From Gammaproteobacteria bacterium (GTDB lineage Bacteria > Pseudomonadota > Gammaproteobacteria > JAHELT01): DNA of 33,034 nt. Both the position numbers and the translations under genes were made by a program. The notes beneath the pieces were generated by a model. That model did not search any database. It saw only the letters and a list, made by a program, of their open reading frames with translations, and was not told the DNA's origin. Shown one piece after another: positions 4,115 to 33,034 of the stretch. The stretch is taken from NCBI GenBank assembly GCA_041623575.1, contig JBFJWO010000003.1, positions 1 through 33,034 on the forward strand, in the 5' to 3' direction. Numbering within the stretch: the first letter of the stretch is position 1; each line of letters starts with the position of its first letter.

Positions 4115-4181
4115 ACCGCCGCCGCGCTTGACTGGCTCACCATTGCCACTCAGGATACGGCGAGCCAACCCCCGAGGCGGC

Positions 4182-7495: not shown

Positions 7496-7783
7496 CTATT
7501 CGTGGGTGATGGGTTTGTCGGTGAACAGGTACTCGCGCAACTCCTTGTCGAGCACCGGGTCGCGGCGACGGATCCACTCCAGCACCATCGCCGCGTGTTC
7601 TTTTTCCTCGTCCCGGTTGTGCGCGAGGATCGCCTTGAGTTCGGCGTCGCGGCAGGCGTCGACGCGTTGGTTGTACCAGTCCACCGCCTCGAGCTCTTCC
7701 ATCAACGAGGTGACGGCGCGATGCATGTCGCGGGTCGCGTCGCTGAGCTCCTCGGTCGGCTCGTGATAGCCTTCGTTTGCCAT
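7496..7783 (-). CDS. Encapsulin-associated ferritin-like protein (EncFtn family), 95 aa
   Basis: MANEGYHEP...DMHRAVTSLMEELEAVDWYNQR...HNRDEEKEHAAMVLEWIRR carries the EncFtn ferroxidase-centre residues (EELEA, EEKEH). GGAG RBS precedes ATG 7783. Confidence 0.92.
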   Translation of the reverse strand: MANEGYHEPTEELSDATRDMHRAVTSLMEELEAVDWYNQRVDACRDAELKAILAHNRDEEKEHAAMVLEWIRRRDPVLDKELREYLFTDKPITHE

Positions 7784-7834
7784 GTCCGTGTTCTCCGTTG
7801 CAGTCACCGCCCTCGCGCGGCGAGGTCGGCGCGC

Positions 7835-7843
7835 ATGATACCA
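7835..7843 (-). promoter_or_regulatory. Possible extended -10 promoter element (TGGTATCAT) for the ferritin gene
   Basis: Reverse complement reads TG-G-TATCAT, about 50 nt upstream of ATG 7783. Confidence 0.3.
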
Positions 7844-7997
7844 CCGGTGCACCGCGCGTTCGCACGCTTGACCGGGTCCGCCGGAATACCGATAGTCGAC
7901 CCTGTCCCCTGCAACCCCGACCGGCCGCCCGGCCCGAGGCAACCCTCATGATGGCTATCGCCCGACGGCACCTGCGTGGGCTCGAGAGCGGGCGGGC

Positions 7998-8534
7998 ATG
8001 AGCGATCCCGCAGCGCGGGGAAACCCGTACGCGCCGCCCCGCGCCGACGTCGCGCCTGCGCACGACGTCTCGGCGCGCGACGAGACCGGCCCGTTCTCGC
8101 CGGCGGGCCGATTCGGGCGCCTGAGCTACGTCGCCTGGAGCTGGTGCCTGATGATGGTGGCCGGCCTCGCGCTCGGCGCGGTAGGTGCGGTCGTGACCAG
8201 CCTGTTCGCGGTGAACGCGGCCGCCGTCCCGGTCCTGGCCGGCCTGTGGAACCTGGCATTGCTGGTGCCGGCGGCGATCTTCATGATCCGGCGCCTGCAC
8301 GACCTCAACCAGTCCGGCTGGTTGTGGCTGCTGGTGCTGGTGCCGCTGATCAACGTGATCCTGATCCTGGTGCTGTTGTTCGCGCCCGGAACCGCGGGCG
8401 CCAACAAGCACGGGCCGCCCCGCGAGACACCGACGTGGGAGAAGGTCGTGGCCGTCGCGGGCATCGCCCTGTGGGCGCTCGGGCTGCTGGCGGCCCTGGT
8501 GCTGCCGGTGCTGGTCGGGCTCGAGCGAACGTGA
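7998..8534 (+). CDS. DUF805 family inner-membrane protein
   Basis: N-terminal NPYAPP, GRFGRLSY, IRRLHDLNQSGW and PGTAGANKHGPP motifs. The stop overlaps the next start (GTGA). Confidence 0.88.
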   Translation: MSDPAARGNPYAPPRADVAPAHDVSARDETGPFSPAGRFGRLSYVAWSWCLMMVAGLALGAVGAVVTSLFAVNAAAVPVLAGLWNLALLVPAAIFMIRRLHDLNQSGWLWLLVLVPLINVILILVLLFAPGTAGANKHGPPRETPTWEKVVAVAGIALWALGLLAALVLPVLVGLERT

Positions 8535-9217
8535 GCGTGCTGCTCGACACCGCCCGACGCTTCGAGACCCCGGAAGGCATCGACCTCACGCTGCGCATCG
8601 CCGGACCGGTGCCACGCGCCGTCGCCTGGTGTATCGACCTGGCCATCCGCGCCGTGGCCTACCTGGTACTCGGCTTCGTGCTCGGCCTGCTCGGCGGCCT
8701 CGGCGTCGGGCTGTCGCTGCTGTTGCTGTTCCTCGCCGAATGGTTCTATCCGGTCGTGTTCGAAGCCCGTCGCGGCGCCACGCCCGGCAAGCAGGCCCTC
8801 GGGCTGGCCGTCGTGCACGATGACGGCGCGCCCCTGACCTGGTCGTCGTCGATGGTTCGCAACCTCCTGCGCGCGGTCGATTTCCTGCCCGTGGGGTACG
8901 GCCTGGGCCTCGCCTGCATGCTGGTGAACCGGGACTTCAAGCGCCTCGGCGACCTCGCCGCCGGCACGCTCGTGGTGTATCGCGAGGGCGCGCCCACCGA
9001 CAGCGGCGATTTCGAGGGCGACTTGCTCGCACCCCCCGGCTCGCTGACGGTGGCCGAGCAGAGCACGCTGCTCGCGTTCGCGGAGCGCGCGGGCGCGTTG
9101 ACGCCCGAGCGGCGCGTCGAGCTGGCCGAGGTACTGTCGCCGCTCACCGGCAAGCGCGGCGACGCGGCGGTCTCGACGCTGCTCGGCTATGCCAACTGGG
9201 TGGCCCGCGGGCGCTGA
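8531..9217 (+). CDS. RDD family membrane protein
   Basis: ETPEGIDL...AGPVPRAVAWCID, GATPGKQALGL, RNLLRAVD and KRLGDLAAGTLVV. GTG start at 8531. Confidence 0.92.
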   Translation: MSVLLDTARRFETPEGIDLTLRIAGPVPRAVAWCIDLAIRAVAYLVLGFVLGLLGGLGVGLSLLLLFLAEWFYPVVFEARRGATPGKQALGLAVVHDDGAPLTWSSSMVRNLLRAVDFLPVGYGLGLACMLVNRDFKRLGDLAAGTLVVYREGAPTDSGDFEGDLLAPPGSLTVAEQSTLLAFAERAGALTPERRVELAEVLSPLTGKRGDAAVSTLLGYANWVARGR

Positions 9218-11657: not shown

Positions 11658-12844
11658 ACGCCCCGTCCCGACGCTGGCGCGCGGCGGCCATCGCCCTGGC
11701 CGGGCTCCTGGTGGCCACCGCGTTGGGCACCTGGTTCGTGCACAACTTCGAGCTGCGCGAAGTCCGCACGCGCACCGCCGTATCGCCGCAGGCACGGCGC
11801 AACCCGTTTCTCGCCGCCGAACGGTTCCTCCAGGACCTCGGCGTGGACGCCCGCAGCGTTCAGGGACGCGAGCGGCTGCGCGACCTGCCGCCGAGCACCG
11901 ACACGCTGCTCGTCAACAACACGACCGTCGCCCTCAACCCGGAGCGACGCGAGCAGTTGCTGGCGTGGCTGCACGACGGCGGTCACCTGCTGGTCACGGC
12001 CTCGCGCGAGTGGAACGCTGCGGCGGGGGCCGCGGACCCGTTCCTCGACCCCTTCGGGGTGCGCCTGCATCGCCTCGAGGAGCACCCGGGGTCGACGCCT
12101 TCCGAGCCGATCGGTATCGAGTTCGACGGCTACCCGCGGGCCGTGCACGTGGCGTTCGATCCGCGGCGGTTCCTGGAAGACGCCGGGGAACAAGCGGTTG
12201 CCGGTGCCGCCGGCGTGCACGGCTACCACCTGTTGCAATACGCGGCCGGCGAAGGATTGCTGACCGTGATGAGCGACAATGCGTTCCTGCGCAACGGGCA
12301 GATCGCAGAGCACGACCACGCCCTCTACCTGGCGCTGCTCAGCGGTGCCGAGCAGGGTGACACCGTATGGCTGCTCTACGACACGGGGATGCCTTCGCTG
12401 GGTGCGCTGCTGTGGCAGCACGCGAGCCTCGCTTTGGCGAGCGCGGCGCTGCTGCTGCTCGCCTGGGCCTGGTCTCGCGCGCGGCGTTTCGGGCCGGCCT
12501 GCGACGAGCCGCGCGGAGCCAGGCGCAGCCTCCTCGAGCACCTGGATGCGGTAGGGCACTACGCGTGGCGTAACGACCGGGCCGTGCATTTGGGTGCCGA
12601 CTCGCGTGCACGCGTGCTGAACAACTGGCGCCGGCGCCACCCGGGGCTGGCCAGCGCCGGCGCCGAGCGACAGCCGGCGTGGATTGCCGAGCACGCTCGC
12701 CTGCCGGCCGGGGCGGTGCGCGCGGCGCTGCTCGACGAAGACGCGGGCAGCGAGCGCGAGTTCATCGCCCGCTGCGCGACGCTGCAACGCCTGGCGGTGA
12801 GCGCCCAGGCCCCGAGATCAACCGGGAGCTACCCCGATGGATGA
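11654..12844 (+). CDS. DUF4350 domain membrane-anchored protein
   Basis: GTG 11654 (GTGA overlap). N-terminal TM, ARRNPFLAAERFL, LLAWLHDGGHLL, second TM followed by RRFGP and RRSLLEHL. Located directly before MoxR. Confidence 0.78.
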   Translation: MNAPSRRWRAAAIALAGLLVATALGTWFVHNFELREVRTRTAVSPQARRNPFLAAERFLQDLGVDARSVQGRERLRDLPPSTDTLLVNNTTVALNPERREQLLAWLHDGGHLLVTASREWNAAAGAADPFLDPFGVRLHRLEEHPGSTPSEPIGIEFDGYPRAVHVAFDPRRFLEDAGEQAVAGAAGVHGYHLLQYAAGEGLLTVMSDNAFLRNGQIAEHDHALYLALLSGAEQGDTVWLLYDTGMPSLGALLWQHASLALASAALLLLAWAWSRARRFGPACDEPRGARRSLLEHLDAVGHYAWRNDRAVHLGADSRARVLNNWRRRHPGLASAGAERQPAWIAEHARLPAGAVRAALLDEDAGSEREFIARCATLQRLAVSAQAPRSTGSYPDG

Positions 12845-13811
12845 GAACCGAGCGCCCGGTGCGCCCGCCGCCGCCTCGTTACAGGCTCTGCAGGCCGAGA
12901 TCGGCCGGGCCGTGGTCGGCCAGTCGCAGGTGATTCGCGAAGTGCTGACGACCCTGGTGGCGGCCGGGCACGTGCTGGTGGAAGGTGTACCCGGACTGGG
13001 CAAGACCTTGCTCGTAAGGGCCGTCGCCAACGCCGTCGGCGGGCGTTTCGGGCGCATCCAGTTCACCCCGGACCTGATGCCGAGCGACATCAGCGGGCAC
13101 GTGATGTTCGACATGAAGACACAGGCCTTTCGCGTGCGCCGCGGCCCCGTGTTCTGCAACTACCTGCTCGCCGACGAGATCAACCGCGCGCCGGCCAAGA
13201 CCCAGTCGGCCTTGCTCGAGGTGATGCAGGAGCAGCAGGTCACCATCGAGGGGCGCGCTTTCGTCGTGGAGCAACCGTTCCTGGTGATGGCCACGCAGAA
13301 CCCGATCGAGCAGGAAGGCACCTACCCGCTGCCGCAGGCGCAACTGGACCGCTTCCTGATGAACGTGCACATCGCCTACCCGCAGGCCGACCACGAGAGC
13401 GAGATGGTGCGCCAGGTCACCGCCGGCGGGCCGGGCGACAGCCTGGACGTCTCGGCGGTACGCCAGGTGCTCGCGCAGGAAGGCATCGTCGCCGCCCAGC
13501 GCGAGGCCGCGGCCCTGCGCGTCGACCCGAAGATCGTCGACTACGCCGTGCGCATCGTGCGCGCGACCCGCACGTGGAACGGCGTCGAAGTGGGTGCCGG
13601 GCCGCGCGGCGGCATCGCGCTGATCAGGGCGGCACGGGCCGGCGCGCTGCTCGACGGGCGCGATTTCGTGACCCCCGACGACGTCAAGGGCGTGTCCCTG
13701 GCCGTGCTGCGCCACCGCCTGAAGCTGACGGCCGACCTCGAGATCGAGGGCTACCGCCCCGACGACGTGCTGGGCGACATCCTCGCCAACACCGACGCGC
13801 CACGCACGTGA
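12837..13811 (+). CDS. moxR: MoxR family AAA+ ATPase
   Basis: Walker A EGVPGLGKT, RIQFTPDLMPSD, Walker B LLADEINRAPAKTQSALLE, and ATQNPIEQEGTYPLP...LDRF. Confidence 0.96.
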   Translation: MDENRAPGAPAAASLQALQAEIGRAVVGQSQVIREVLTTLVAAGHVLVEGVPGLGKTLLVRAVANAVGGRFGRIQFTPDLMPSDISGHVMFDMKTQAFRVRRGPVFCNYLLADEINRAPAKTQSALLEVMQEQQVTIEGRAFVVEQPFLVMATQNPIEQEGTYPLPQAQLDRFLMNVHIAYPQADHESEMVRQVTAGGPGDSLDVSAVRQVLAQEGIVAAQREAAALRVDPKIVDYAVRIVRATRTWNGVEVGAGPRGGIALIRAARAGALLDGRDFVTPDDVKGVSLAVLRHRLKLTADLEIEGYRPDDVLGDILANTDAPRT

Positions 13812-15127
13812 GCGCCTGGTTGCCGGTCCCCGGCCCGCGGCTGCTGGCCGCGCTCGCGTTGCTGCTGGCGCTAAGCCTGGCCGCTACCGCCGTGCCGGCG
13901 CTGACGCTCTGGTGGCAGGCGGCCGCGGCTCTGCTCGCCGGTGCTGCCCTGCTCGACGCCTGGTGGCTGCGTGGCGGCGCGCCGTTCGAGGCCTCGCGCC
14001 TGGCCAAGCGCAGCGTGCCGGTCGGCATGCGCACGGGCGTCACCTTGCGGATCCGCAACGTCGGCGCGCGACCCGTCAGCGCGCGGGTGTTCGATCACCA
14101 CCCGGCGTACTGCGACGTCTCCGGACAACCTCGAGACGTGCATCTGGGCATCGGCGAAGCCGTGCAGGTCGACTACGAGTTGCGCCCGCGCCGGCGCGGC
14201 AGCGCAGACTTCGCCGGCACCGAGGTGTTGCTCGCGGGACCGCTGGGGCTGTGGTGGCGGCGCCACTTCCTGGCACTCGGCGGCGAGTTGCGGGTCTATC
14301 CCAACTTCTCCCAGATCGCGCGCTTCACCCTGCTCGCGAGCGAGCAGCGACTCGCCCGCATGGGCGTGCACCGGCGCCAGCGGCGCGGCGAGGGCAACGA
14401 TTTTCACCAGTTGCGCGAGTACCGCGCCGGCGACGCCCTGCGGCAGATCGAATGGAAAGCGAGCGCGCGCCACCGGCGCCTGATCACGCGCGAGTACCAG
14501 GACGAGCGCGATCAGCAACTGGTGTTCCTGCTCGACAGCGGCCGGCGCATGCGCCACGAGGAGGCGCAACGCGTGCACCTCGACGAAGCACTGAACGCCG
14601 TGCTGCTGCTCGCCTACGTCGCCACCCGTCAGGGCGACGGGGTCGGCCTGATGGCTTTCGGTGGCGAACCCCGCTGGTGCGCCCCGCGCACGGGGGCAGG
14701 CAGCGTACGCCGCCTGCTGCAGCTGACCTACGACCTGCACGCCGGCGCCGACGCGGCGGACTACCTGCTCGCGGCGCGCAACCTGCTGGCGGTGCAGCCC
14801 AAACGCGCGCTGGTCGTGCTGGTCACCAATACCCGCCACGAAGACCAGCGCGAACTGGGCGCCGCGCTTGCGCTGTTGCGCCGCCGCCACCTGGTGGTGC
14901 TGGCCGACCTGCGTGAGCAGGCGCTGGACGAAACCGTGCACCGCCCGGTGCGGGACCTCGACGGCGCATTGCGGCTGCACGCGGTCAACGCCTACCTGCA
15001 GGCGCGCCGCAAAGCGCACGAAACGCTTGCCCACCACGGGGCGCTGGTGCTGGACGTCACGGCCCCGCAACTGCCGGCGGCGCTGGTCAACCAGTACCTG
15101 TCCATCAAACGGGCCGGGCGATTGTGA
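13808..15127 (+). CDS. DUF58 / VWA-like domain protein (MoxR partner)
   Basis: GTG 13808 (GTGA overlap). N-terminal TM pair; DUF58 core FHQLREYRAGD..RQIEWKASAR...REYQDER; degenerate MIDAS LLDSGRRM. Confidence 0.92.
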   Translation: MSAWLPVPGPRLLAALALLLALSLAATAVPALTLWWQAAAALLAGAALLDAWWLRGGAPFEASRLAKRSVPVGMRTGVTLRIRNVGARPVSARVFDHHPAYCDVSGQPRDVHLGIGEAVQVDYELRPRRRGSADFAGTEVLLAGPLGLWWRRHFLALGGELRVYPNFSQIARFTLLASEQRLARMGVHRRQRRGEGNDFHQLREYRAGDALRQIEWKASARHRRLITREYQDERDQQLVFLLDSGRRMRHEEAQRVHLDEALNAVLLLAYVATRQGDGVGLMAFGGEPRWCAPRTGAGSVRRLLQLTYDLHAGADAADYLLAARNLLAVQPKRALVVLVTNTRHEDQRELGAALALLRRRHLVVLADLREQALDETVHRPVRDLDGALRLHAVNAYLQARRKAHETLAHHGALVLDVTAPQLPAALVNQYLSIKRAGRL

Positions 15128-15203
15128 CGGCCGCGCCCGGCGCGCGCCGGCCCCGGGGCGGGTGTTTGCTATGCTCCCCGTCGGGCGGTCAGCGGAGCGG
15201 GAA

Positions 15204-16316
<1,113 letters not shown>

Positions 16317-22631: not shown

Positions 22632-22658
22632 TAACATGTTAGTTATCGGCCAATAACT
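22632..22658. promoter_or_regulatory. Two abutting inverted repeats, putative GntR operator
   Basis: Perfect palindrome TAACATGTTA (22632-22641) and AGTTAT-N6-ATAACT (22641-22658), in the only AT-rich patch of the divergent intergenic region and touching the -35 box. Confidence 0.6.
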
Positions 22659-22687
22659 TGTCAAAATCCGCGAGCGCGTTTTACACT
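22658..22687 (+). promoter_or_regulatory. Sigma70-type promoter of the TRAP operon
   Basis: TTGTCA (22658-22663), 18-nt spacer, TACACT (22682-22687). GGAGG RBS precedes ATG 22738. Confidence 0.65.
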
Positions 22688-22737
22688 GCCCGCGCGGCGC
22701 CGTCACGAGTTGCCGCAACGCCAACGGAGGACAAACC

Positions 22738-23739
22738 ATGACCACCCTGATTCGCGGCCGCCTCGCGGGTGCCGCGCTGATCGCGACGTTGTTCGTTTTC
22801 GCCGCCGCGCCGGCCGCCGCCGAGGCCGTCAAGCTGCGCATCTCCACGCCGGCGGTGGACAAGGACTGGCATGCGCAGATGCTCTACGTGTTCAAGGACT
22901 GGCTGGAGCGCTCGGCGCCCGGCGAGTTCGACGTCGAGGTCCACCTCAACGCGACCCTGTTCAAGCAGGGCACCGAGCCCGCCGCGATGCAGCGCGGCAA
23001 CCTCGACATGGCGCTGATCTCCGCCCAGGACATCGCCAAGCAGGTTCCCGACTGGTCGATATTCACCGCCGGCTACCTGATCCGCGACCCGGCCCATCAG
23101 CAGGCCGTGTTCAACGGCGACATCGGCCGCGAGATGTACGCGCGGGTCCGCGAGGAGATGGGCATCGAGATCCTGACCGTCGCCTATCTCGGCACGCGCC
23201 AGCTCAACCTGCGCACCGACAAGCGGATCTCCACGCCCGCCGATCTGCAGGGTGCGAAGCTGCGCATGCCGGGCTCCAAGTCCTGGCAGTTCCTCGGCAA
23301 GGCGCTCGGCGCCAATCCGACCCCGATGGCGTTCACCGAGGTCTACACCGCGTTGCAGACCGGCACCGTCGACGGGCAGGACAACCCGCTGCCGACCGAC
23401 AAGGCGGCCAAGTTCTACGAGGTGACCAAGCAGATCGTGCTCACCTCGCACCTCGTCGACGGCGTGTTCCTGTCGATCTCGGGCAAGACCTGGGCGAAGC
23501 TCGACGCCGAGCAACAGGCCCTGGTGCGCAACGCCGCTCACGCCGCGGCCCGGTTCAACAACGAGAACCGCGTGCGCGACGAGGCCAACCTGGTCGCGTT
23601 CTTCCGTGACCAGGGCCTGCAGGTCTACGAGCCCGACGTCGCGGCGTTTCGCGAGCGCGTGCAGAAGATGTACCTCGAGAGCGAGTTCTCCAAGGACTGG
23701 CCGCCCGGCCTGCTGCAACGGATCAACGCGGTGCAGTAG
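22738..23739 (+). CDS. dctP: TRAP transporter substrate-binding protein
   Basis: Signal peptide (AEA cleavage site), DLQGAKLRMP with the conserved carboxylate-binding Arg, PTPMAFTEVYTALQTGTVDGQDNP and KFYEV. Confidence 0.95.
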   Translation: MTTLIRGRLAGAALIATLFVFAAAPAAAEAVKLRISTPAVDKDWHAQMLYVFKDWLERSAPGEFDVEVHLNATLFKQGTEPAAMQRGNLDMALISAQDIAKQVPDWSIFTAGYLIRDPAHQQAVFNGDIGREMYARVREEMGIEILTVAYLGTRQLNLRTDKRISTPADLQGAKLRMPGSKSWQFLGKALGANPTPMAFTEVYTALQTGTVDGQDNPLPTDKAAKFYEVTKQIVLTSHLVDGVFLSISGKTWAKLDAEQQALVRNAAHAAARFNNENRVRDEANLVAFFRDQGLQVYEPDVAAFRERVQKMYLESEFSKDWPPGLLQRINAVQ

Positions 23740-23757
23740 TCCGGCGGCGCTGCGCGC

Positions 23758-24237
23758 GTGCGCAAGCTCGCCGCGACCCTGCAGCGCGGTGCCGAACTGG
23801 CGGCGGCTGCGATGTTCGCCGCCATGTTCGGCGCTTTCGTGCTGCAGGTGTTCATGCGCTACGTGGTCAACCGTCCGCTCGAGTGGACGCTGGAGGCCTG
23901 CCTCATCGCCTACCTGTGGATCGTGTTCTGGGGGGCGGCGTTCCTGGTGCGCGAGCGCGATCACGTCGCCTTCAACCTCGTCTATGCCGGGGTCGCACCG
24001 CCGCTGCGCCGCGTGCTCGCCATCGTCGGCAGCGCACTGATCGGCGCCGCCTTCGTGGCGGCCTTCCCGGCCACCTGGGATTTCGTGCGTTTCATGCGCA
24101 TCGACTCGACCTGGGTGCTGGAACTGCGCTTCGACCTGGTGTTCTCGGTGTTCCTGGTGTTCATGCTGGCGGTGATCGTGCGTGCCGTCGTGCGGGTGTT
24201 CGCGTTGCTGGGCCCGCGATGGCGCGCGCACCTCTGA
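23758..24237 (+). CDS. dctQ: TRAP transporter small permease
   Basis: Four TM helices with QVFMRYV...W..E...W..F.GA...HV; lies between dctP and dctM. Confidence 0.92.
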   Translation: MRKLAATLQRGAELAAAAMFAAMFGAFVLQVFMRYVVNRPLEWTLEACLIAYLWIVFWGAAFLVRERDHVAFNLVYAGVAPPLRRVLAIVGSALIGAAFVAAFPATWDFVRFMRIDSTWVLELRFDLVFSVFLVFMLAVIVRAVVRVFALLGPRWRAHL

Positions 24238-24265
24238 GGCGCGCCCGGCGCCGGGGTGCGGCGCG

Positions 24266-25561
24266 GTGAGCCCCGCGCTGCTGCTGATGATCGGGTTGTT
24301 CCTGGCGGCCGGCGCCATCGGCATGCCCGTGGCGTTCGCCATGATCGCGGCCGGCATCGCCTACCTGTTCGCGAGCGGCCAGGACGTCGGCCTCGCCGGC
24401 GAGCAGATCCTGAACGGGCTGTTCAACAGCTTCGTGCTGCTGGCGGTGCCGTTGTTCATTTTCGCCGCCAACGTGATGAACGCCGGCACCGTCAGCGACC
24501 GGCTGCTGGGGTTCTGCCTGGCGATGGTCGGGCGCCTGCGCGGCGGCCTTGCGCACGTGAACATCGTCGCCAGCCTGATCTTCTCGGGCATGAGCGGCAG
24601 CGCGATCGCCGACGCCGCCGGCATCGGGCGCATCCTCATCTCCATGATGACGCGCGACGGGCGCTATGCGCCCGGCTTCGCCGCCGCCATCACCGCCGCC
24701 TCGGCCACCATCGGCCCGATCATCCCGCCGTCCATCCCGATGGTGCTCTACGCGCTGGTGTCGGGAACGTCGGTCGGTTACCTGTTTCTCGGCGGCATCG
24801 TGCCCGGGTTGATCATGGCCGCGTTCCTGATGGCGGCGGTGTGGGTCATCGCCCGGCGCCGGGGGTTCGTCGTCGACGAGAAAGTGCCGCTCGCGCAGCT
24901 GCCGCGAATCACGCTGCGCGCGCTGCCGCCGTTGATGCTGCCCGTGATCCTGCTCGGCGGCATCTACGGCGGCGCCACCACCCCCACCGAAGCCGCGTCG
25001 GTGGCCGCGGCCTACGCGCTGCTGCTGACGCTGGTGGTCTACCGCAGCCTGCGCCTGCGCCACCTGCTCGACCTGCTGGTCGATTCGGCCCGTTCCACGG
25101 CGATCGTCGCCCTGATCATCGGCGGTGCGTTCGTGTTCAACTACGTGATCGCCGCCGAGCGCATCCCGGACCTCATCGCGGGCTGGCTGGCCGGCACCGA
25201 CGTCGACCCGCTGGTGTTCCTGCTGCTGGTCAACCTGCTGTTCCTGCTGTTCGGCTGCCTGCTGGACGCGACCACCATGCTGCTGGTCCTGGTCCCGCTG
25301 CTGCTGCCGACCTGCGAGGCGCTGGGGATAGACCTGGTGCACTTCGGGGTGATCATCGTGGTCAACATCATGATCGGGCTCATCACCCCGCCCTACGGTG
25401 TGCTGCTGTTCGTGATCAACGGCCTGACCGGAATCGAGCTGCGGGACATGATCCGCGAGGTGCTGCCCTTCCTCGGCATCCTGATCCTCGCGCTGCTGAC
25501 GATGGTGTTGTTTCCCGACACCGTGCTGTGGCTGCCGCGCCGGTTCGGCTACACGGGTTGA
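24266..25561 (+). CDS. dctM: TRAP transporter large permease
   Basis: LLAVPLFI, GGLAHVNI..S.IFSGMSGSAIAD, GPIIPPSIP, TPTEAA and IGLITPPYG. GTG 24266. Confidence 0.95.
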   Translation: MSPALLLMIGLFLAAGAIGMPVAFAMIAAGIAYLFASGQDVGLAGEQILNGLFNSFVLLAVPLFIFAANVMNAGTVSDRLLGFCLAMVGRLRGGLAHVNIVASLIFSGMSGSAIADAAGIGRILISMMTRDGRYAPGFAAAITAASATIGPIIPPSIPMVLYALVSGTSVGYLFLGGIVPGLIMAAFLMAAVWVIARRRGFVVDEKVPLAQLPRITLRALPPLMLPVILLGGIYGGATTPTEAASVAAAYALLLTLVVYRSLRLRHLLDLLVDSARSTAIVALIIGGAFVFNYVIAAERIPDLIAGWLAGTDVDPLVFLLLVNLLFLLFGCLLDATTMLLVLVPLLLPTCEALGIDLVHFGVIIVVNIMIGLITPPYGVLLFVINGLTGIELRDMIREVLPFLGILILALLTMVLFPDTVLWLPRRFGYTG

Positions 25562-25564
25562 CGC

Positions 25565-26629
25565 GTGGACACGACGCCTGCACTGCGGCCGCTGCTCGAC
25601 TCCTCCGCTGCGCTGCGCGAGCCCGAAACGCTGCGCGCGCGCATGGCCCGCGACGGCTACCTGCTGCTGCGCGGCCTGGTGCCGCGCAGCGACGTGTCCC
25701 GCGTGTTCGCGGCCATCGCGGCGATCGCCCGCGACGCCGGCTGGCTGCGCGCCGACGCCCCGCCGCAGGCGGCGCTCGCCGAGCCCCGCGGGTTCTGCGT
25801 CGACCCCGAGCCGGCCTACCTGGCGGTCATCGACGAGGTCAACCGCCTGTACGCGTTCAACGCGCTCAGTCACCATCCCGCGCTGCTGGCGCTGCTGCGG
25901 GACCTGCTCGACGCGCCGGTGCTGGTGCACCCCAAGCCGCTGATCCGGGTGATCTTTCCCGACCACGACGACTACACCACGCCGGCGCACCAGGACTTCC
26001 CCAACATCCAGGGAACCACCGAGGTCTACACCGCCTGGCTGGCGCTGGCCGATTACCCGGCCGGGGCCGGGGGTCTTGCGATCGCGCGTGGCTCGCACAC
26101 CGCCGGCGTCTACGACTTCGAGATCGCCAACGGCGCGGGCGCCATGCGCGTGTGCGACCCGCTCGACGGGCGCTGGATGGGAGGCGGCAGGTTCGCCGCC
26201 GGCGACGTCCTGCTGTTCCACAGCCTCACCGTGCACCGCGGCCTGCCCAACCGCAGCGCTCACCTGCGCCTCTCGGTCGACGCCCGCTACCAGCGCGTGG
26301 CGGACCCCGTGAACCCGGAAAACCTGGCCGGGCCGAACGGGGCACCGGCCACCTGGGAAGCGGTCTACGAACGCTGGACGCCGGCCGAGCGAGCCCACCT
26401 CGCCTGGTACTGGCGTCGCTTCGCATTGCGCGAACGCCCGCCCGAGCGGACCTGGGTGGAACGACGTGACGCGCTGGGCTTTGCGCTGGGCGAACAACGC
26501 GACCCGCGGGCCCGCTCGGTGCTGCTGCGCATCCTGATGCGCGATCCGGACCCGCGCAAACGCGCCCGCGCGCAACGACTGCTGCAAGGGTTGGCGAACG
26601 CCAGCGCCTCCCCGGGCACGACGCTATAA
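25565..26629 (+). CDS. Phytanoyl-CoA dioxygenase (PhyH)-family Fe(II)/2-oxoglutarate oxygenase with a C-terminal helical extension
   Basis: RDGYLLLRGL, facial triad TPAHQD ... GDVLLFHSLTVH, and 2OG-binding R.S.D.R (LRLSVDARYQ). Starts 3 nt after the dctM stop. Confidence 0.9.
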   Translation: MDTTPALRPLLDSSAALREPETLRARMARDGYLLLRGLVPRSDVSRVFAAIAAIARDAGWLRADAPPQAALAEPRGFCVDPEPAYLAVIDEVNRLYAFNALSHHPALLALLRDLLDAPVLVHPKPLIRVIFPDHDDYTTPAHQDFPNIQGTTEVYTAWLALADYPAGAGGLAIARGSHTAGVYDFEIANGAGAMRVCDPLDGRWMGGGRFAAGDVLLFHSLTVHRGLPNRSAHLRLSVDARYQRVADPVNPENLAGPNGAPATWEAVYERWTPAERAHLAWYWRRFALRERPPERTWVERRDALGFALGEQRDPRARSVLLRILMRDPDPRKRARAQRLLQGLANASASPGTTL

Positions 26630-26630
26630 T
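26625..26630 (+). promoter_or_regulatory. Consensus -10 box TATAAT, putative leaderless promoter of idi-eboA-eboB
   Basis: Perfect TATAAT overlapping the PhyH stop codon, 7 nt before ATG 26638. No Shine-Dalgarno sequence. Confidence 0.55.
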
Positions 26631-26637
26631 CGCCACA

Positions 26638-27225
26638 ATGGCGAACGCACACACCCCGGCGACGGGCTATCCGCCGGTCTCCTCCCCGAACGACGAACTC
26701 ATCCTGGTCGATGCCGCGGACAACCCGATCGGGCACCTGCGCAAGCACGACTGTCACCAGGGTGACGGGGTGCTGCACCGGGCCTTCTCGCTGTTCGTCT
26801 TCAACCCGGCCGGCGAGCTGCTGCTGCAGCAGCGCAGCACGGAGAAGCCGCTGTGGCCGCTGTACTGGGCTAACACCTGCTGCAGCCACCCGCGCCGCGG
26901 CGAGACCATGAGCCAGGCGACCGGGCGGCGCCTGCACGAGGAGCTCGGGGTCGCCTGCGACTTGCAGTACCTGTTCAAGTTCACCTACCAGGCGCGCTAC
27001 GAGGACCTCGGCAGCGAGCACGAAACGTGCTGGGTCTACGCCGGGGTCGGCGAGGTCGAGGTCCAGGCCAACCCGCACGAGGTCGCCGACTGGGCCTACC
27101 TCGCGCCGGCCCGGGTCGATGCGGAACTCGCCACGAACCCCGCGCGCTACACGCCCTGGCTCAAGCTGGAATGGCCGCGCGTGCGCGCCTGGGCGCAGCG
27201 CCACCTGCCGGAGTCGCCGCCGTGA
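26638..27225 (+). CDS. idi: Isopentenyl-diphosphate delta-isomerase, type 1
   Basis: LILVD, H..G.LHRAFSLFVFN, LLQQRS..K, WANTCCSHP, SEHE, NPHEV and YTPW. Confidence 0.95.
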   Translation: MANAHTPATGYPPVSSPNDELILVDAADNPIGHLRKHDCHQGDGVLHRAFSLFVFNPAGELLLQQRSTEKPLWPLYWANTCCSHPRRGETMSQATGRRLHEELGVACDLQYLFKFTYQARYEDLGSEHETCWVYAGVGEVEVQANPHEVADWAYLAPARVDAELATNPARYTPWLKLEWPRVRAWAQRHLPESPP

Positions 27226-28112
27226 GCGAAGCAGTCCCCGGCCTGCTGCGCGAGTGGCTGCAGCGCCAACTGCCCGCGCCGGCGCGCGACTGGCTGGCGG
27301 AGCGCCTGCAGATGCAGGCGACCCAGCCCTCCGAGCGCGCGTTGCACATCACGCTCGGCATGATCCCGCGCCGCCTCGGCAAGGCGGACCTCGAGCTGTC
27401 ACCGTCCGATCTCGCCGCGGCGGACGCGGCGCGCGCGGGCTGGGACCCGGCCGCGTGGAGCGTCGACGTCGCCGCCAGGGTGCTGGTGCTGCTCCTCGAC
27501 GGCGGCGCCAACCGCGGCTTCGCGGCCCGCTTCGAAGACTTGTGTCGCACGGCCGACCTCGGCGAGTCCATCGCGCTCTACAGCGGCCTGCCGCTGTACC
27601 CCGAGCCGCGGGCGCTGGCCTTTCAGGTCGGCGAGGGTCTGCGCACCAACGTGCGGGCGGCGTTCGAGGCCATCGCCCACCGCAACCCCTACCCGTGCGA
27701 GCAGTTCGACGAGCACCGCTGGAACCACATGGTGTTGAAGGCCCTGTTCATCGGCAGCGCGCTGGCGCCGATCCAGGGGCTCGATCGGCGCGCCAACCCG
27801 GAGCTGGCCCGCATCCTGTGCGACTACGCGCACGAACGCTGGGCCGCCTCGCGCCCGGTGAGCGCAGAGCTGTGGCGCTGCGTCGGCCCGTTCGCGGGCG
27901 CCGAGGCACTGGCCGATCTGGAGCGCGTGCTGGCGAGCGAGGACCCGCGCGAGCGACGCGCCGCCATCCTGGCCCTGGCCGCCGCGCCGGGCAGCGACGC
28001 GCGGGCCTTGCTGGACCGCGCCGACGCCGACAGTCGCGCAGCCCTCGCGAGTGGCCGCCTCTCCTGGGCTACACTCACCCCTCACCAGCCAGCCGACGGT
28101 AACCCATCATGA
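27222..28112 (+). CDS. eboA: EboA family protein
   Basis: GTG 27222 overlaps the idi stop. PRRLGKADL, WSVD.AAR, ALYSGLPL, EGLRTN...FEAIAHRNPYP...WNHMVLKALF, R.N.ELARIL.DYAHERWAA.R.V..ELWRCV. Immediately upstream of the TatD-like eboB. Confidence 0.88.
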   Translation: MSEAVPGLLREWLQRQLPAPARDWLAERLQMQATQPSERALHITLGMIPRRLGKADLELSPSDLAAADAARAGWDPAAWSVDVAARVLVLLLDGGANRGFAARFEDLCRTADLGESIALYSGLPLYPEPRALAFQVGEGLRTNVRAAFEAIAHRNPYPCEQFDEHRWNHMVLKALFIGSALAPIQGLDRRANPELARILCDYAHERWAASRPVSAELWRCVGPFAGAEALADLERVLASEDPRERRAAILALAAAPGSDARALLDRADADSRAALASGRLSWATLTPHQPADGNPS

Positions 28113-29035
28113 TGTTCATCGATCCACACACACACATGATCTCGCGTACCACCGACGACTACGAGGCCATGGCCGCGGCGGGCATAGTGGCGCTGATCGA
28201 GCCGGCTTTCTGGATCGGCCAGCCGCGCACCAACGTGGGGTCCTACAGCGACTACCTGTCACACATCATCGGCTTCGAGCGGTTCCGCGCCGGGCAGTTC
28301 GGCATCCGCCACTACTGCACCATCGGGCTCAATTCCAAGGAAGCCAACAACGAGGAGCTGGCCGAGGCGGTCATGGAGATCCTGCCGCGCTTCGCGCTCA
28401 AGGACGGGGTGGTGGCGATCGGCGAGATCGGCTACGACGAGCAGACCGACCTCGAAGACCGCTATTTCCGTCAGCAGATCGACCTGGCGATGGAACTGGA
28501 CCTGCCGGTGATGATCCACACGCCGCACCGCGACAAGCAACGCGGCACGTCGCGTTCGATGGACGTGTGCGAGGAACACGGTATCGCGCCCTCCCGGGTG
28601 GTGATCGACCACAACAACGAGAACACCGTGCGCGAAGTGCTCGACCGCGGTTTCTGGGCGGCCTTCTCGATCTACCCCAGCACCAAGATGGGCAACGCGC
28701 GGATGGTGGAGATCCTGCAGCAGTACGGGGCCGAGCGAGTCATCGTGGACTCCGCCTGCGACTGGGGGATATCGGAGCCGCTCGGCGTGCCGAAGACCGC
28801 CAAGCTCGCCCTCGAGCGCGGGATACCCGAGGAACAGGTGGAGCTTGCCTGTTACCGCAACGCGCTGGAGGCCTACGGTCAGAGCGGGCAGATCCGCGAG
28901 GAGGACTGGCTGGACCCGCCACCCATCGACCAGCGCACGGTCTACGAGGGCAACTCGATCCTGCGCGGGCAGCGCGAGCCGCGGGTCGAGGAGCCGAAGA
29001 TCAAACGCTCCATGGACGAACTGATCATCGAGTAG
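28109..29035 (+). CDS. eboB: TatD-family metallohydrolase, EboB type
   Basis: DPHTHMISRTTDDYEAM, EPAFWIGQPRT, ERFRAGQFGI.HYCTIGLNSKEANN, GEIGYD, IHTPHRDK, DHNNE and DSACDWG. ATGA overlap with eboA. Confidence 0.9.
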   Translation: MMFIDPHTHMISRTTDDYEAMAAAGIVALIEPAFWIGQPRTNVGSYSDYLSHIIGFERFRAGQFGIRHYCTIGLNSKEANNEELAEAVMEILPRFALKDGVVAIGEIGYDEQTDLEDRYFRQQIDLAMELDLPVMIHTPHRDKQRGTSRSMDVCEEHGIAPSRVVIDHNNENTVREVLDRGFWAAFSIYPSTKMGNARMVEILQQYGAERVIVDSACDWGISEPLGVPKTAKLALERGIPEEQVELACYRNALEAYGQSGQIREEDWLDPPPIDQRTVYEGNSILRGQREPRVEEPKIKRSMDELIIE

Positions 29036-29288
29036 GCGTTCGACACGGTCCCGCCGCGCTGCGCGGTGCGGGTACTCGGCCCCGAGGAAACTGCGGCGGA
29101 TCGAGCCCGCCTCACCGCTTGTATACCACCGCTGCGTGGTTTAGCCTCTGCTCATCGGCCGACACACCGCTTCGTGGGGTGCGACCGATATTCTCCCGGC
29201 CCCGATGGCGCGTGTGTTTGGTGTTACGCGCTGCCGACGATCAATAACACGAGCGGGCCGAAACTCACCTCGACCGGAGGAGTACTTT

Positions 29289-30530
29289 ATGAAACGACTG
29301 CTTCTCGCCTCGGCACTGGCCACCGTGGGGTTAGGCAACACAGCCAATGCCGATAATCTCGACAAGCTGAGCAAGTTCCAGCAGACCGGGGTCAAGGACT
29401 TCACCTATGTCGAGCAGGGCGGCTCGAAAGCCGACGCGATCCGCAGGAATCTGCAGCGGATCGAGATGCCCGATGGTTTCCGGATAGACCTCTATGCGCT
29501 CGTGCCGGACGCCAGACATATCGCCGTCGGCACCCAGGGGATCGTCACGTTCGTCGGCACGCGCAAGACCAAGGTCTGGTCGGTGACCGATCGCGACAAG
29601 GACCGCGTAGCCGACGAGGTGAAAGATTTCGCCCCGTCGATCGATTTCGCGATCCCCAACGGCCCGTGCTTCTCATCCGATGGATTCCTGTTCATCGCCG
29701 AGCAAAACCGGGTTCTGCAGTTCCCGGCAGCCGAGTTCTTCTACGAGAGCCCCGATGTCGCCGCGTTCAACGTCGTGCCACAGGGTGAGCTGATCCCGGC
29801 GACCGAGGAGAGCTATAACCACACCGCGCGGGTATGCCGGGTCGGTCCCGACAACAAGCTCTACATCTCGCTCGGCCAGCCTTACAACGTCCCGCCGCCC
29901 GAGAAGATGGATCTGTACGACGAATGGGGTATCGGCGGCGTCGTGCGCCTCAATCGCGACGGCACCGGCCGCGAGGTCTACACCTACGGGATTCGTAACT
30001 CGGTCGGCCACGACTTCAATCCGGCCAACGGCGAGCTGTGGTTCACCGACAACCAGGTCGACGGCATGGGCGACGATATTCCTCCGGGGGAGCTGAACCG
30101 CCAGACCGCCATGGGCCAGCACTTCGGCTTTCCGTGGTACGGCGGCGGCTCGGTGCGCACCAACGAATACAAAGACGATCAGCCGCCCGCCGACGTCGTG
30201 TTCCCGGTGGTGGAGATGGTGGCGCACGCGGCCGACCTCGGCATGACCTTCTATACCGGCAAAATGTTCCCGGAGAAGTACCGTGGCGGCATCTTCTCCG
30301 CGCAACACGGTTCCTGGAACCGCACCACGCCGGTCGGTGCCCGGGTCATGTTCACGGCCGTAAACGCCGACGGCAGCGTTGGCGAGAGCGCTCCGTTCGC
30401 CGAAGGTTGGCTCGACGAGAACGGCGAGTATCTCGGTCGCCCGGTCGACGTGGCACAGCTTCGCGACGGCTCGCTGCTGGTTTCCGATGACCTCGCAGGC
30501 GCGCTCTACCGGATCTCCTACGCGAAATGA
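29289..30530 (+). CDS. Secreted glucose/sorbosone dehydrogenase-family (PQQ-type six-bladed beta-propeller) protein
   Basis: GGAGGAG RBS and Sec signal peptide (..TANA|D). MPDGFRIDLYA...AR, GPDNKLYISLGQPYN, GIRNSVG.DF, WFTDN..D.MGDDIPPGELN, FGFP, HGSWNR and GRPVDV....DGSLLVSDD.AGALYRI. Confidence 0.9.
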   Translation: MKRLLLASALATVGLGNTANADNLDKLSKFQQTGVKDFTYVEQGGSKADAIRRNLQRIEMPDGFRIDLYALVPDARHIAVGTQGIVTFVGTRKTKVWSVTDRDKDRVADEVKDFAPSIDFAIPNGPCFSSDGFLFIAEQNRVLQFPAAEFFYESPDVAAFNVVPQGELIPATEESYNHTARVCRVGPDNKLYISLGQPYNVPPPEKMDLYDEWGIGGVVRLNRDGTGREVYTYGIRNSVGHDFNPANGELWFTDNQVDGMGDDIPPGELNRQTAMGQHFGFPWYGGGSVRTNEYKDDQPPADVVFPVVEMVAHAADLGMTFYTGKMFPEKYRGGIFSAQHGSWNRTTPVGARVMFTAVNADGSVGESAPFAEGWLDENGEYLGRPVDVAQLRDGSLLVSDDLAGALYRISYAK

Positions 30531-30595
30531 CCGAGACAGGCGCGGCGGCGGCTGGGGTCGTCGCCGCGCACACATGATGCATCGAAGCCTCTAGA

Positions 30596-30931
30596 GTGCC
30601 TACATCACCTCACCACATCCTGTGCGCGATGGTCGCCTGCCTGCTCGTCGGCACCGCCCCCGCCGCGGACCTGGCGAAAGGCAAGGCGGCGGCGCGCCAG
30701 TGCAACGTGTGCCACGGCAAGGACGGTATCGCCACCAATCCCGAGGCACCCAACCTGGCCGGCGAGTCGGCCATCTACGTGGAGAAGCAGTTGGTGGCAT
30801 TCAAGACCGGCGAGCGCCAACATCGGCAGATGTCGATCATCGCGCAGGGCCTGGACATGACCACGATCAAAGACCTCGCCGCCTGGTACGCGGCTATGCA
30901 GGTAACCGTCGTGCTGCCGAAAGTCGACTGA
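30596..30931 (+). CDS. Periplasmic monoheme class I cytochrome c (c553/c4-like)
   Basis: Signal peptide, CNVCHG heme motif, PNLAGE...Y..KQL..FK.GER, and axial Met (QMS). Confidence 0.93.
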   Translation: MPTSPHHILCAMVACLLVGTAPAADLAKGKAAARQCNVCHGKDGIATNPEAPNLAGESAIYVEKQLVAFKTGERQHRQMSIIAQGLDMTTIKDLAAWYAAMQVTVVLPKVD

Positions 30932-31001
30932 CTACGACGCGTTGCGGTCGTACCCGAGCGCTGTCGCTCCGCTGTACAGCCCGGTAGCGAAGCTGTACAG
31001 A

Positions 31002-31388
31002 TCAGCGTCGGTGACCATGGCCGCGCACCCGGCGGTCGTTGTGCCGCTCCCACAGCGCAGTGACTGCCGCGACGCCGAGCACCAGTACGACGATCATCAG
31101 GCCCATGCTCTCGCGGACGGTCTCGCTGGTCCACCAGATTTCGCGACGCCAGAACCCGGGAATGCGGGGCCAGAAGTAGACGGCGCCGGCCAGTGCGCTC
31201 GCCACACTCACGCCCAACAGGCCGCCGAACAGTCGATTCGTCATCAGCCGAGGGCGCAACGCCACCGTGGCGCACAACAGCGCCGGAACCGTGTAAACCG
31301 CGCCCCACACCAACCCGTCGGGATCGTTATACTGCACCGCGGCAAAGGTGAGCATCAGCGCACTCGAGCACAGGTTGACGTACTTGAT
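31002..31388 (-). CDS. TMEM220-family small membrane protein
   Basis: FAAVQYNDPD...W...Y and E..RE..GL motifs. Start is uncertain: ATC at 31388 follows a GAGG RBS, while the first ATG is at 31355. Confidence 0.8.
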   Translation of the reverse strand: MKYVNLCSSALMLTFAAVQYNDPDGLVWGAVYTVPALLCATVALRPRLMTNRLFGGLLGVSVASALAGAVYFWPRIPGFWRREIWWTSETVRESMGLMIVVLVLGVAAVTALWERHNDRRVRGHGHRR

Positions 31389-31406
31389 AACCAGAACCTC
31401 GCCGGT

Positions 31407-31423
31407 TTGGCACGCGTTTTGTA
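31407..31423 (+). promoter_or_regulatory. Sigma54 (RpoN)-like -24/-12 promoter upstream of eboD
   Basis: TTGGCACG-CGTT-TTGTA versus consensus YTGGCACG-N4-TTGCW: exact spacing, one mismatch at -12, about 65 nt before ATG 31489. Confidence 0.5.
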
Positions 31424-31488
31424 AGACTACGAGTCGGAGCAGGGAGTATAGCCGGCATGTCTCGCCGAGGGACGACAAAGAGATCGCC

Positions 31489-32685
31489 ATGACGCCGACC
31501 AAGACCCGCATCGCCGCAGACTCGACCTGCCTGTGGCAGCGTTTCGCGGTGCCCTACGAGTACCCCGTGCATTTCACGCGCGACCTGTTCGCGCCGGCTA
31601 ACCCCGTGCTGAAAGACACCGTGAGCCGGCTCGAGCCCGAGCGGCGTCACCGCTGCATCGTATTCGTCGACGACGGCGTGCTGCACGCCTGTCCGGGGCT
31701 GGCGGCCGGGATCGAGGCCTACGCCGAACGCCATCGCGCGCACATCGACCTGGTGAGCGAGCCGATCGCGGTACCGGGCGGCGAGAAGATCAAGTCGGAG
31801 CTGCATTTCGTCGAACAGATGCAGCAGGCCCTGTTCGACCACCACATCGACCGCCACTCCTACGTGATCGCGATCGGCGGCGGCGCCGTGCTCGACGCGG
31901 CGGGCCTGGTGTCCGCCACGGCCCACCGCGGCATTCGCCACGTGCGGGTCCCGACCACCGTGCTGGCACAGAACGACTCGGGCGTGGGCGTGAAGAACGG
32001 CGTCAACCTGTTCGGCGCCAAGAACTACGTCGGCACCTTCGCGCCGCCGTTCGCGGTGCTCAACGACATCGCCTTCGTCGAACGCCTGGGCCTGCGCGAC
32101 AAGATCGCCGGGATGGCCGAGGCGGTGAAGGTCGCCCTGATCCGCGACGCCGATTTCTTCACCTGGCTCGAACGTCACGCCGACGACCTGGCGACGGTGG
32201 ACCTCGACGCCCTCGCGACCCTCATCCGGCGCTGCGCGCAGTTGCACATGCGCCAGATCGCCCACGGCGGCGACCCCTTCGAGAGTGGCAGCGTGCGCCC
32301 GCTGGACTACGGGCACTGGTCGGCGCACAAGCTCGAGGGCATGACGCGCTATCACCTGCGCCACGGCGAGGCGGTGGCCATCGGCATCGCGCTCGACGCC
32401 CGCTACTCGGTGTTGAGCGGGTTGTTGCCGCCCGGCGAGGAGGAACGCATCTGCTTCCTGCTCGAGCACCTCGGCTTCCGGCTCTGGCACCCGGCGCTCG
32501 ACAACCGCAACGCCGCCGGGCGGCGTGAAGTACTCACCGGGCTCAGCGACTTTCGCGAGCACCTCGGCGGCGAGCTCACCATCACTTTGCTCGAGCGCGT
32601 AGGCACCGGTATCGAGGTGCACGAGATGGACGAGGAGCGGGTCGAGCAGGCGATCGACTGGCTGCGGGACCGGCACGGTCGCTGA
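31489..32685 (+). CDS. eboD: 3-dehydroquinate synthase-like sugar-phosphate cyclase, EboD type
   Basis: PGGEKIK, IDRHSYVIAIGGGAVLD, HRGIRHVRVPTTVLAQNDSGVGVKNG, GMAEAVKVALI, GGDPFESGS.RPLDYGHWSAHKLE and LRHGEAVAIG. Coupled to eboE. Confidence 0.9.
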   Translation: MTPTKTRIAADSTCLWQRFAVPYEYPVHFTRDLFAPANPVLKDTVSRLEPERRHRCIVFVDDGVLHACPGLAAGIEAYAERHRAHIDLVSEPIAVPGGEKIKSELHFVEQMQQALFDHHIDRHSYVIAIGGGAVLDAAGLVSATAHRGIRHVRVPTTVLAQNDSGVGVKNGVNLFGAKNYVGTFAPPFAVLNDIAFVERLGLRDKIAGMAEAVKVALIRDADFFTWLERHADDLATVDLDALATLIRRCAQLHMRQIAHGGDPFESGSVRPLDYGHWSAHKLEGMTRYHLRHGEAVAIGIALDARYSVLSGLLPPGEEERICFLLEHLGFRLWHPALDNRNAAGRREVLTGLSDFREHLGGELTITLLERVGTGIEVHEMDEERVEQAIDWLRDRHGR

Positions 32686-33034
32686 TGGAACTCAGCGGCG
32701 GACCCGGTCTGGGGCACCTCACCTACTGCACCAACATCCACCCCGGCGAAGACTGGCCGGCCGTGCTCGCCGCGCTCCGTCGCTACCTGCCGGCGGTCAA
32801 GGCCCACCTGGCGCCGGAGCGGCCGCTGGGGGTCGGGCTGCGCCTCGCTGCGTCCGCCGCGCGCGCCCTGCGCGAGCCCGCGGCACTCGACGAGTTGCGC
32901 GGCCTGCTGCGCGACGGCGACTTCTACGTGTTCACCCTCAACGGCTTCCCCTACGGCGCGTTTCACGGCCAGCGGGTCAAGGAAGGCGCCTACCGCCCCG
33001 ACTGGACGCAGCCGGAACGCCTCGCCTACACCAA
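32685..33034 (+). CDS. eboE: EboE (TIM-barrel, xylose-isomerase-like), 5' part only; runs off the right edge
   Basis: Not in the ORF track. Manual translation from ATG 32685 (TGATG overlap): MELSGGPGLGHLTYCTNIHPGEDW...GVGLRL...YVFTLNGFPYGAFHGQRVKEGAYRPDW...RLAYT, which matches EboE signature segments. Confidence 0.9.
   Translation, partial: MELSGGPGLGHLTYCTNIHPGEDWPAVLAALRRYLPAVKAHLAPERPLGVGLRLAASAARALREPAALDELRGLLRDGDFYVFTLNGFPYGAFHGQRVKEGAYRPDWTQPERLAYT

Follow-up and report, generated by a model that had tools for sequence, protein, structure and literature searches.

Probable replacement of the propeller dehydrogenase/cytochrome c pair in the ebo gene cluster of a gammaproteobacterium

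The stretch of DNA analysed here (the window; 33,034 nucleotides) is one entire contig (C3; JBFJWO010000003.1) of a gammaproteobacterial metagenome-assembled genome (MAG; G000, 571 contigs, 4.7 Mb, 76% complete), and its end is occupied by a cluster of ebo genes in the order idi-eboA-eboB-[propeller dehydrogenase-cytochrome c]-TMEM220(-)-eboD-eboE-eboC-eboF(-), of which eboC and eboF lie on a second contig of the same MAG (C524). We report that the HHIP-like propeller and cytochrome usual in such clusters have, in this lineage, probably given way, both genes together, to an AA12-like pair, an exchange that suits a needed periplasmic oxidation. This non-orthologous replacement is new, as is a third propeller subfamily found beside ebo genes in another genome.

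The original prediction, made from the window sequence by itself, had described the order from idi to eboE together with its overlapping stop and start codons, and both are borne out by the open reading frames (ORFs) and by Pfam and NCBIfam scans. The functional tie that it proposed between the ebo genes and a secreted propeller and cytochrome c is likewise supported, since the same slot is filled in related loci and in a congener. It had also called the layout atypical; the architecture proves to be the usual one for this type of cluster, and only the subfamily to which the pair belongs is unusual.

The dehydrogenase/cytochrome slot in related ebo clusters

The usual occupants of the slot were determined in 80 metagenome loci carrying the eboD genes closest to that of the window (66-76% identity, adjoining eboE and eboC; G+C content 0.44-0.72), using stop-to-stop frames and phmmer, with an overlap filter made necessary by spurious long frames in GC-rich DNA. 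A GSDH-family gene lies within 4.2 kb after eboB in 24 of the 25 informative loci, and the sole exception (L107) carries one on the other strand. Upstream of eboD, the informative loci contain a GSDH-family gene in 31 of 44 cases and a cytochrome c in 41 of 56, and a TMEM220 gene in reverse orientation is directly upstream in 68 of 70. All propellers in these loci are of a single kind, GSDH2, and the window pair is of another subfamily than that in the 24 of 25. The pair stays with the ebo genes even where their order is rearranged, as in L134 and L171, in which it follows eboB-idi. In agreement with the original prediction, idi recurs elsewhere, adjoining ebo genes in four of the 80 loci. One low-GC ebo locus (L113) has two GSDH2-type genes, at 3058-4602 (-) and 7517-8836 (+), one of them in the slot and the other divergent from eboA.

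A congener of the MAG (G002, 90% complete) carries eboB-GSDH2-cytc2-TMEM220(-)-eboD-eboE-eboC-eboF(-) on one 6.7-kb contig. Its GSDH2 shares 24% local identity with the window propeller (BLASTP E 0.002), and the cytochromes of the two clusters have no similarity past the CxxCH motif. In sequence GSDH2 matches the HHIP propeller best (7e-45), then Asd and sGDH (1e-16 for sGDH); it keeps the RN motif, unlike HHIP in the alignment, and the His at the catalytic position is invariant in 28 of 28 orthologues. Whereas GSDH2 thus matches sGDH (1C9U), Asd (2G8S) and HHIP in sequence, a search of the PDB with the window protein at E 1e-3 gave no match, these three included. The window propeller and GSDH2 belong to different families.

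The simplest history would be one in which the ancestor of the genus had GSDH2-cytc2 and this lineage imported the AA12-like pair as a unit. Neither gene of the older pair has left a remnant in the window between 28900 and 31600, and no orthologue of either was found elsewhere in the MAG, in which the best match is 36% identical. The G+C content at third codon positions (GC3) is 0.83-0.86 for the pair (0.83 for the dehydrogenase) against 0.91-0.94 for the ebo genes. Because the 4.7 Mb of the MAG contain only six GSDH-family matches, it is unlikely that a chance insertion would have supplied these two kinds of gene again, with slot and orientation unchanged; the like-for-like nature of the replacement therefore supports a needed periplasmic oxidation step. 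The gene order is no assembly chimera, since Logan unitigs from three runs of one study (which may include the source sample) bridge every junction in 28700-31700, including eboB/dehydrogenase and cytochrome/TMEM220/eboD, with 0-1 differences. Runs X5-X14 contain small shares of the stretch, and X5 matches conserved parts only.

Across the class, EboE was found in 12 of 401 genomes, and nine of these were taken for comparison, leaving aside the MAG itself, G002 and G297. One of the nine (L196; G248:C1) has, at 13820-15675 (-), a third, weakly GSDH-like propeller (Pfam 26.3 bits) and a cytochrome c, directly upstream of eboC-D-E-F; this propeller is 26% identical to that of the window, and the 10 kb on either side contain neither eboA nor eboB. 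In another of the nine an unrelated, PKD-bearing GSDH gene lies about 5 kb from ebo.

The window's dehydrogenase and its relatives

The window dehydrogenase belongs to a large family, with 6335 representatives at E <= 1e-3. Its AlphaFold2 model (pLDDT 91.5, pTM 0.88) is a six-bladed beta-propeller, for which the best folds in Foldseek are Trichoderma reesei AA12 and Coprinopsis cinerea PDH (E 4e-20 to 2e-19, TM 0.66-0.72), followed by Asd and sGDH; all of the top PDB folds are of the AA12, Asd or sGDH kinds. In agreement with this, a profile of the family matches T. reesei AA12 at 1.5e-17. Of 41 family members, 32-40 retain the residues R76, H178, R236-N237, H313, H340, W343-N344 and R384, which can be paired, by motif order and with the aid of the T. 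reesei profile alignment, with the pyrroloquinoline quinone (PQQ) ligands reported for the C. cinerea enzyme in the available text of PMC6881789 (Arg273, His363, Arg430-Asn431, His539, His560, Trp563-Asn564 and Arg621). The modelling and residue comparison suggested in the original prediction thus yield an AA12-like fold with the PQQ motif set kept and, given also the cytochrome partner, the protein seems to be an intact PQQ enzyme that works with a haem protein.

The AA12 PQQ pyranose dehydrogenases (C. cinerea PDH and T. reesei AA12) resemble the window enzyme in fold, in the H-x-x-W-N and R-N motifs, in the catalytic His and in the Arg, and the electron partner is a haem protein in both cases. 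They differ from it in that identity is 18-19%, and in that the partner is in their case a fused cytochrome b domain and here a cytochrome c with a gene of its own; cytochrome c domains are fused in two of eight longer homologues of the window dehydrogenase. A bacterial homologue of the fungal AA12 enzyme is described in the available part of PMC5960967 as oxidizing D-glucosone, and this Pseudomonas aureofaciens 2-keto-D-glucose dehydrogenase is likened to the window enzyme by description only.

Very many close homologues of the window dehydrogenase (73-82% identity) are present in other genomes, mostly of Alphaproteobacteria. We examined its 80 best genome loci, of which 56 have both 10-kb flanks and 71 have flanks adding up to 5 kb or more. 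A homologous cytochrome c (40-73% identical) is directly downstream of the dehydrogenase in 76 of the 80; the four misses are two contig ends and two loci without a CxxCH frame. Besides the pair itself there are no conserved neighbours in the 80 loci, the flanks of which vary, and none has a match to eboA, B, C, E, F, idi or TMEM220 within 10 kb of the pair. Three Thalassospira loci have an eboD-like match, at 31-32% identity, which is probably aroB. As the cytochrome is kept adjacent, ebo genes are not nearby and the flanks vary, this subfamily is a free-standing two-gene module. Conservation of this particular dehydrogenase beside ebo genes, the lack of which the original prediction had itself named as speaking against its proposal, is thus to the letter not found, the three probable aroB genes aside.

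These data bear on the suggestion that, instead of PQQ, the dehydrogenase uses the ebo product as a prenylated cofactor or receives its cofactor through export by ebo. The clustering itself and the unknown roles of EboA and TMEM220 could be taken to favour such an arrangement. We nonetheless consider it very improbable: the residues match the PQQ-binding set of the C. cinerea enzyme by motif order, all 80 loci of the subfamily are without nearby ebo genes, and the like-for-like replacement together with this ebo-free occurrence argues against the enzyme's cofactor being made by ebo. PQQ genes are also to be found close to home, in that the MAG has a C-terminal fragment of PqqE (117.6 bits) at the end of contig C2, and a second congener (G001, which lacks ebo genes) has pqqE and pqqC beside an N-terminal propeller fragment (C191:2835-6640), which is cut by the contig end and 43-46% identical to the window dehydrogenase. 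No pqqC was found in the 76% of the MAG genome that is represented, and neither pqqC nor pqqE was seen in G002 at its 90% completeness.

A proposed periplasmic oxidation in the ebo pathway

The end product of the ebo pathway, which the original prediction regarded as unresolved, has since come into view. According to the available part of a recent preprint (bioRxiv 10.64898/2026.05.21.724671), ebo genes are tied to the farnesylated hydroxyquinoline meroterpenoids saccharoquinoline and thallusin: three EboC homologues farnesylate hydroxyquinaldates in vitro, EboD supplies the cyclitol, and deletion of eboB, C, E or F in Stieleria abolishes thallusin, which is a secreted signal present in the culture medium. 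The preprint assigns no enzyme to the oxidative conversion of saccharoquinoline to thallusin and its main text, supplements aside, never mentions a dehydrogenase, cytochrome, PQQ, isopentenyl or periplasm. The core genes of this pathway are the same as those of the window cluster.

A scheme can be proposed in which the pair has a place in this pathway. The Idi protein, to judge from its family, would balance isopentenyl and dimethylallyl diphosphates for the synthesis of farnesyl diphosphate. Under the model in the available part of the preprint, EboA, B, E and F would build the hydroxylated head group with aspartate, the precursor of the nitrogen ring of thallusin, and EboC would farnesylate it in the membrane, as the three homologues do in vitro (bioRxiv 10.64898/2026.05.21.724671). 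The propeller enzyme would then oxidize the lipid-anchored product by two electrons on the periplasmic side and deliver the electrons via cytochrome c to the respiratory chain, and TMEM220, at a guess, may hold or present the substrate. That oxidation could correspond to the conversion of saccharoquinoline to thallusin, or else to a tailoring reaction peculiar to the lineage. In its most specific form the proposal is that a two-electron oxidation in the periplasm is required by this type of ebo cluster, that the requirement has been filled at least three times, by HHIP-like, AA12-like and third, weakly GSDH-like propellers, and that the module is the oxidase of saccharoquinoline towards thallusin with the respiratory chain as electron sink; this we put forward tentatively, and regard as rather unlikely to be correct in all its parts.

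The pair could instead serve the ebo product continuously rather than in one-time tailoring, if the farnesylated polyhydroxyquinoline is a quinol-like carrier in the membrane that the pair couples to oxidation of a periplasmic substrate or to the respiratory chain. A lipid-anchored head group of the catechol or pyrogallol type, as the product is described in the available preprint text (bioRxiv 10.64898/2026.05.21.724671), would be suitable for this, and a dedicated cytochrome c accompanies each of the three propeller subfamilies. The cluster is nevertheless without quinone-type methyltransferase or reductase genes, and thallusin is secreted, so that a carrier role seems improbable.

The published ebo and EDB clusters offer a further comparison. 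All six ebo families, eboC as a UbiA-like candidate, are present and clustered in this MAG, taking the window and C524 together; in contrast to the published clusters, idi heads the operon here and eboF is convergent. The EDB cluster of Pseudomonas fluorescens NZI7 is reported to comprise six ebo homologues and three extra genes of unknown function (available text of PMC12904256), and some of the non-ebo reading frames are said to bear signal peptides (available text of PMC6282210). By description only, these three genes could correspond to a dehydrogenase, a cytochrome and a membrane protein of small size. Our literature search, supplements aside, found no paper that links ebo genes with PQQ, sorbosone dehydrogenase or cytochrome c, or that interprets the EDB extra genes.

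The chief rival to a needed oxidation is that a mobile sugar or osone dehydrogenase-cytochrome module entered the spacer between two ebo sub-operons, displacing the original pair or following its loss, and that it has no ebo role, the oxidation step being either missing or supplied elsewhere. The free-standing habit of the module, the variability of its flanks and the absence of any pair from several related loci favour this, and a neutral insertion could likewise account for the pair's own ribosome-binding site, its 253-base spacer and its lower GC3. L109 shows that modules of this kind do reach the neighbourhood of ebo genes. Divergent from eboA in this locus, and so at another position and in another orientation, 59 residues remain of a window-type propeller (59% identity), accompanied by a window-type cytochrome c; an eight-bladed PQQ alcohol/glucose dehydrogenase follows, and then another cytochrome c. 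Of the usual propeller, L109 (2400-9320) retains the last ~100 residues, and the slot is occupied by a VTT/TVP38-domain gene. Standing against a passenger are the unchanged slot and orientation of a like-for-like exchange, the scarcity of GSDH-family genes in the MAG, with which a random two-gene insert would rarely consist of a propeller and a cytochrome c, the regularity with which the slot is filled in related loci, and the third subfamily adjoining eboC in G248. On balance we find this explanation doubtful, and continue to favour replacement in the service of a needed periplasmic oxidation.

Several further observations weigh against that preference. As ebo genes are not near the window-type pair in its 80 loci, its native substrate is presumably something other than an ebo product, and the characterized AA12 enzymes act on sugars and D-glucosone, with an aromatic substrate unmentioned in the available text of both sources (PMC6881789, PMC5960967). 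Thallusin-making Bacteroidota carry eboABCDEF only, according to the available part of the preprint (bioRxiv 10.64898/2026.05.21.724671). In 13 of the 44 informative related loci there is no GSDH gene upstream of eboD, L199 has TMEM220 without the pair, and seven of the nine class ebo clusters are without a propeller or cytochrome within 10 kb; the dehydrogenase/cytochrome module is a trait of one ebo cluster lineage and not of all ebo clusters. The 80 eboD loci were picked by likeness of eboD and are non-independent, one of them (L102) being the G002 contig itself, and the MAG is only 76% complete. In the pairless related loci eboD-E-C stands beside genes for an Asp/Glu racemase, Usp, MaoC, a molybdenum hydroxylase and an amine oxidase, with eboA-eboB off the contig. 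The Asp/Glu racemase-family gene follows TMEM220 at 2203-2916 (-) in L103, and frames of the same size are at a like place in L099 and L105.

Gene content and surroundings of the cluster

The gene calls, which rest on the listed ORFs, on scans with Pfam and NCBIfam and on reading of the sequence itself, are collected in Table 1.

Table 1. Features of the ebo cluster in the window
Feature	Position	Strand	Evidence
idi, type 1 isopentenyl-diphosphate isomerase (Nudix)	26638-27225	+	NF002995 163.8 bits (cut-off 127); TIGR02150 149.5 bits (cut-off 105.8)
eboA	27222-28112	+	GTG start within GTGA overlap with idi stop; NF035938 EboA_domain 163.4 bits (cut-off 50)
eboB, TatD-like metal hydrolase	28109-29035	+	ATGA overlap; Pfam TatD_DNase 61.6 bits (cut-off 27), 1e-16
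Spacer, 253 bases	29036-29288		GGAGGA 6 bases 5' of dehydrogenase ATG
Secreted six-bladed propeller dehydrogenase, putative AA12-like PQQ type ('W type')	29289-30530	+	Pfam GSDH 2.2e-13; Sec-type signal peptide
Monohaem class I cytochrome c	30596-30931	+	CNVCH, signal peptide; Pfam Cytochrom_C 23.3 bits (cut-off 21.3)
TMEM220-family small membrane protein	31002 to 31355/31490/31511 (start uncertain)	-	Pfam PF15071 55.8 bits (cut-off 27)
eboD, DHQS-like sugar-phosphate cyclase	31489-32685	+	NF004852 581.6 bits
eboE 5' part, first 116 codons, cut by contig end	32685-33034	+	TGATG overlap with eboD; NF035939 TIM_EboE 147.9 bits

The eboA product scores 234 bits against the full EboA_family model (NF035937), under the cut-off of 320, and eboB is 81-83% identical to the eboB genes of related ebo loci. 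The true start of the dehydrogenase gene is the ATG at 29289, behind the GGAGGA, rather than position 29205, and the cytochrome c is a protein of 111 residues with a hydrophobic N-terminus. For TMEM220 the start is probably M8 (31490) or M1 (31511), since a conserved KYVN precedes M53. Either of these overlaps the start codon of eboD (31489) on the opposite strand, so that the divergent genes would share their 5' ends without a spacer; the corresponding gap in G002 is 69 bases. A scan of 26300-31700 found no promoter-like (sigma-70) site and no plus-strand terminator, and is uninformative on transcription units.

The eboE match in the window spans positions 1-105 of the 379 in the NF035939 model. 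Contig C524 shares the last 354 bases of the window with 98% identity and contains, past this overlap, a full eboE (NF035939 475.5 bits, cut-off 250), a UbiA-like candidate for eboC and, convergent with it, an eboF-like gene of the Phosphodiest family, and thus candidates for the two genes that the original prediction had sought downstream. The join between the two contigs is likely, though not proven and, given the 98% identity of the overlap, C524 is possibly derived from a co-assembled strain variant. The eboC candidate scores 43.9 bits with Pfam UbiA (cut-off 34.2) and 117.4 bits with NF035940 EboC, under the cut-off of 250, with the SCO3242 family close at 103.4 bits; its position and its 63% identity to the G002 gene favour its identity as eboC. 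The eboF-like gene (Pfam Phosphodiest 1.3e-33) is truncated by the contig end and had no match in the NCBIfam scan, and related loci have eboF at the same convergent position. A second eboF-like fragment lies at another contig end of the MAG (G000:C368:1-318, -); its identity to the C524 gene is 60% across 106 residues.

Upstream of the cluster, at 22657-26629 (+), are the TRAP genes dctP, dctQ and dctM followed by a PhyH-family Fe(II)/2-oxoglutarate dioxygenase gene that ends 9 bases before idi. We have left these genes out of the system because homologues of PhyH and the TRAP genes are absent from the 89 other ebo loci searched, although the PhyH-family oxygenase heading the operon could be a strain-specific tailoring enzyme. 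A MoxR-type AAA ATPase gene lies about 13 kb upstream (12801-13811, +); considering the distance and the intervening genes, its link to ebo is doubtful.

Among bacterial natural-product genes with a pathway still largely to be worked out, the ebo genes are some of the most widespread, and thallusin is a seaweed morphogen. A slot that is kept through rearrangements, and that is refilled here by an unrelated pair, provides concrete candidates for the oxidative step, and the analysis also shows the AA12-like bacterial pair to be a very widespread free-standing module. The replacement is a natural swap experiment, which asks whether one module can stand in for the other.

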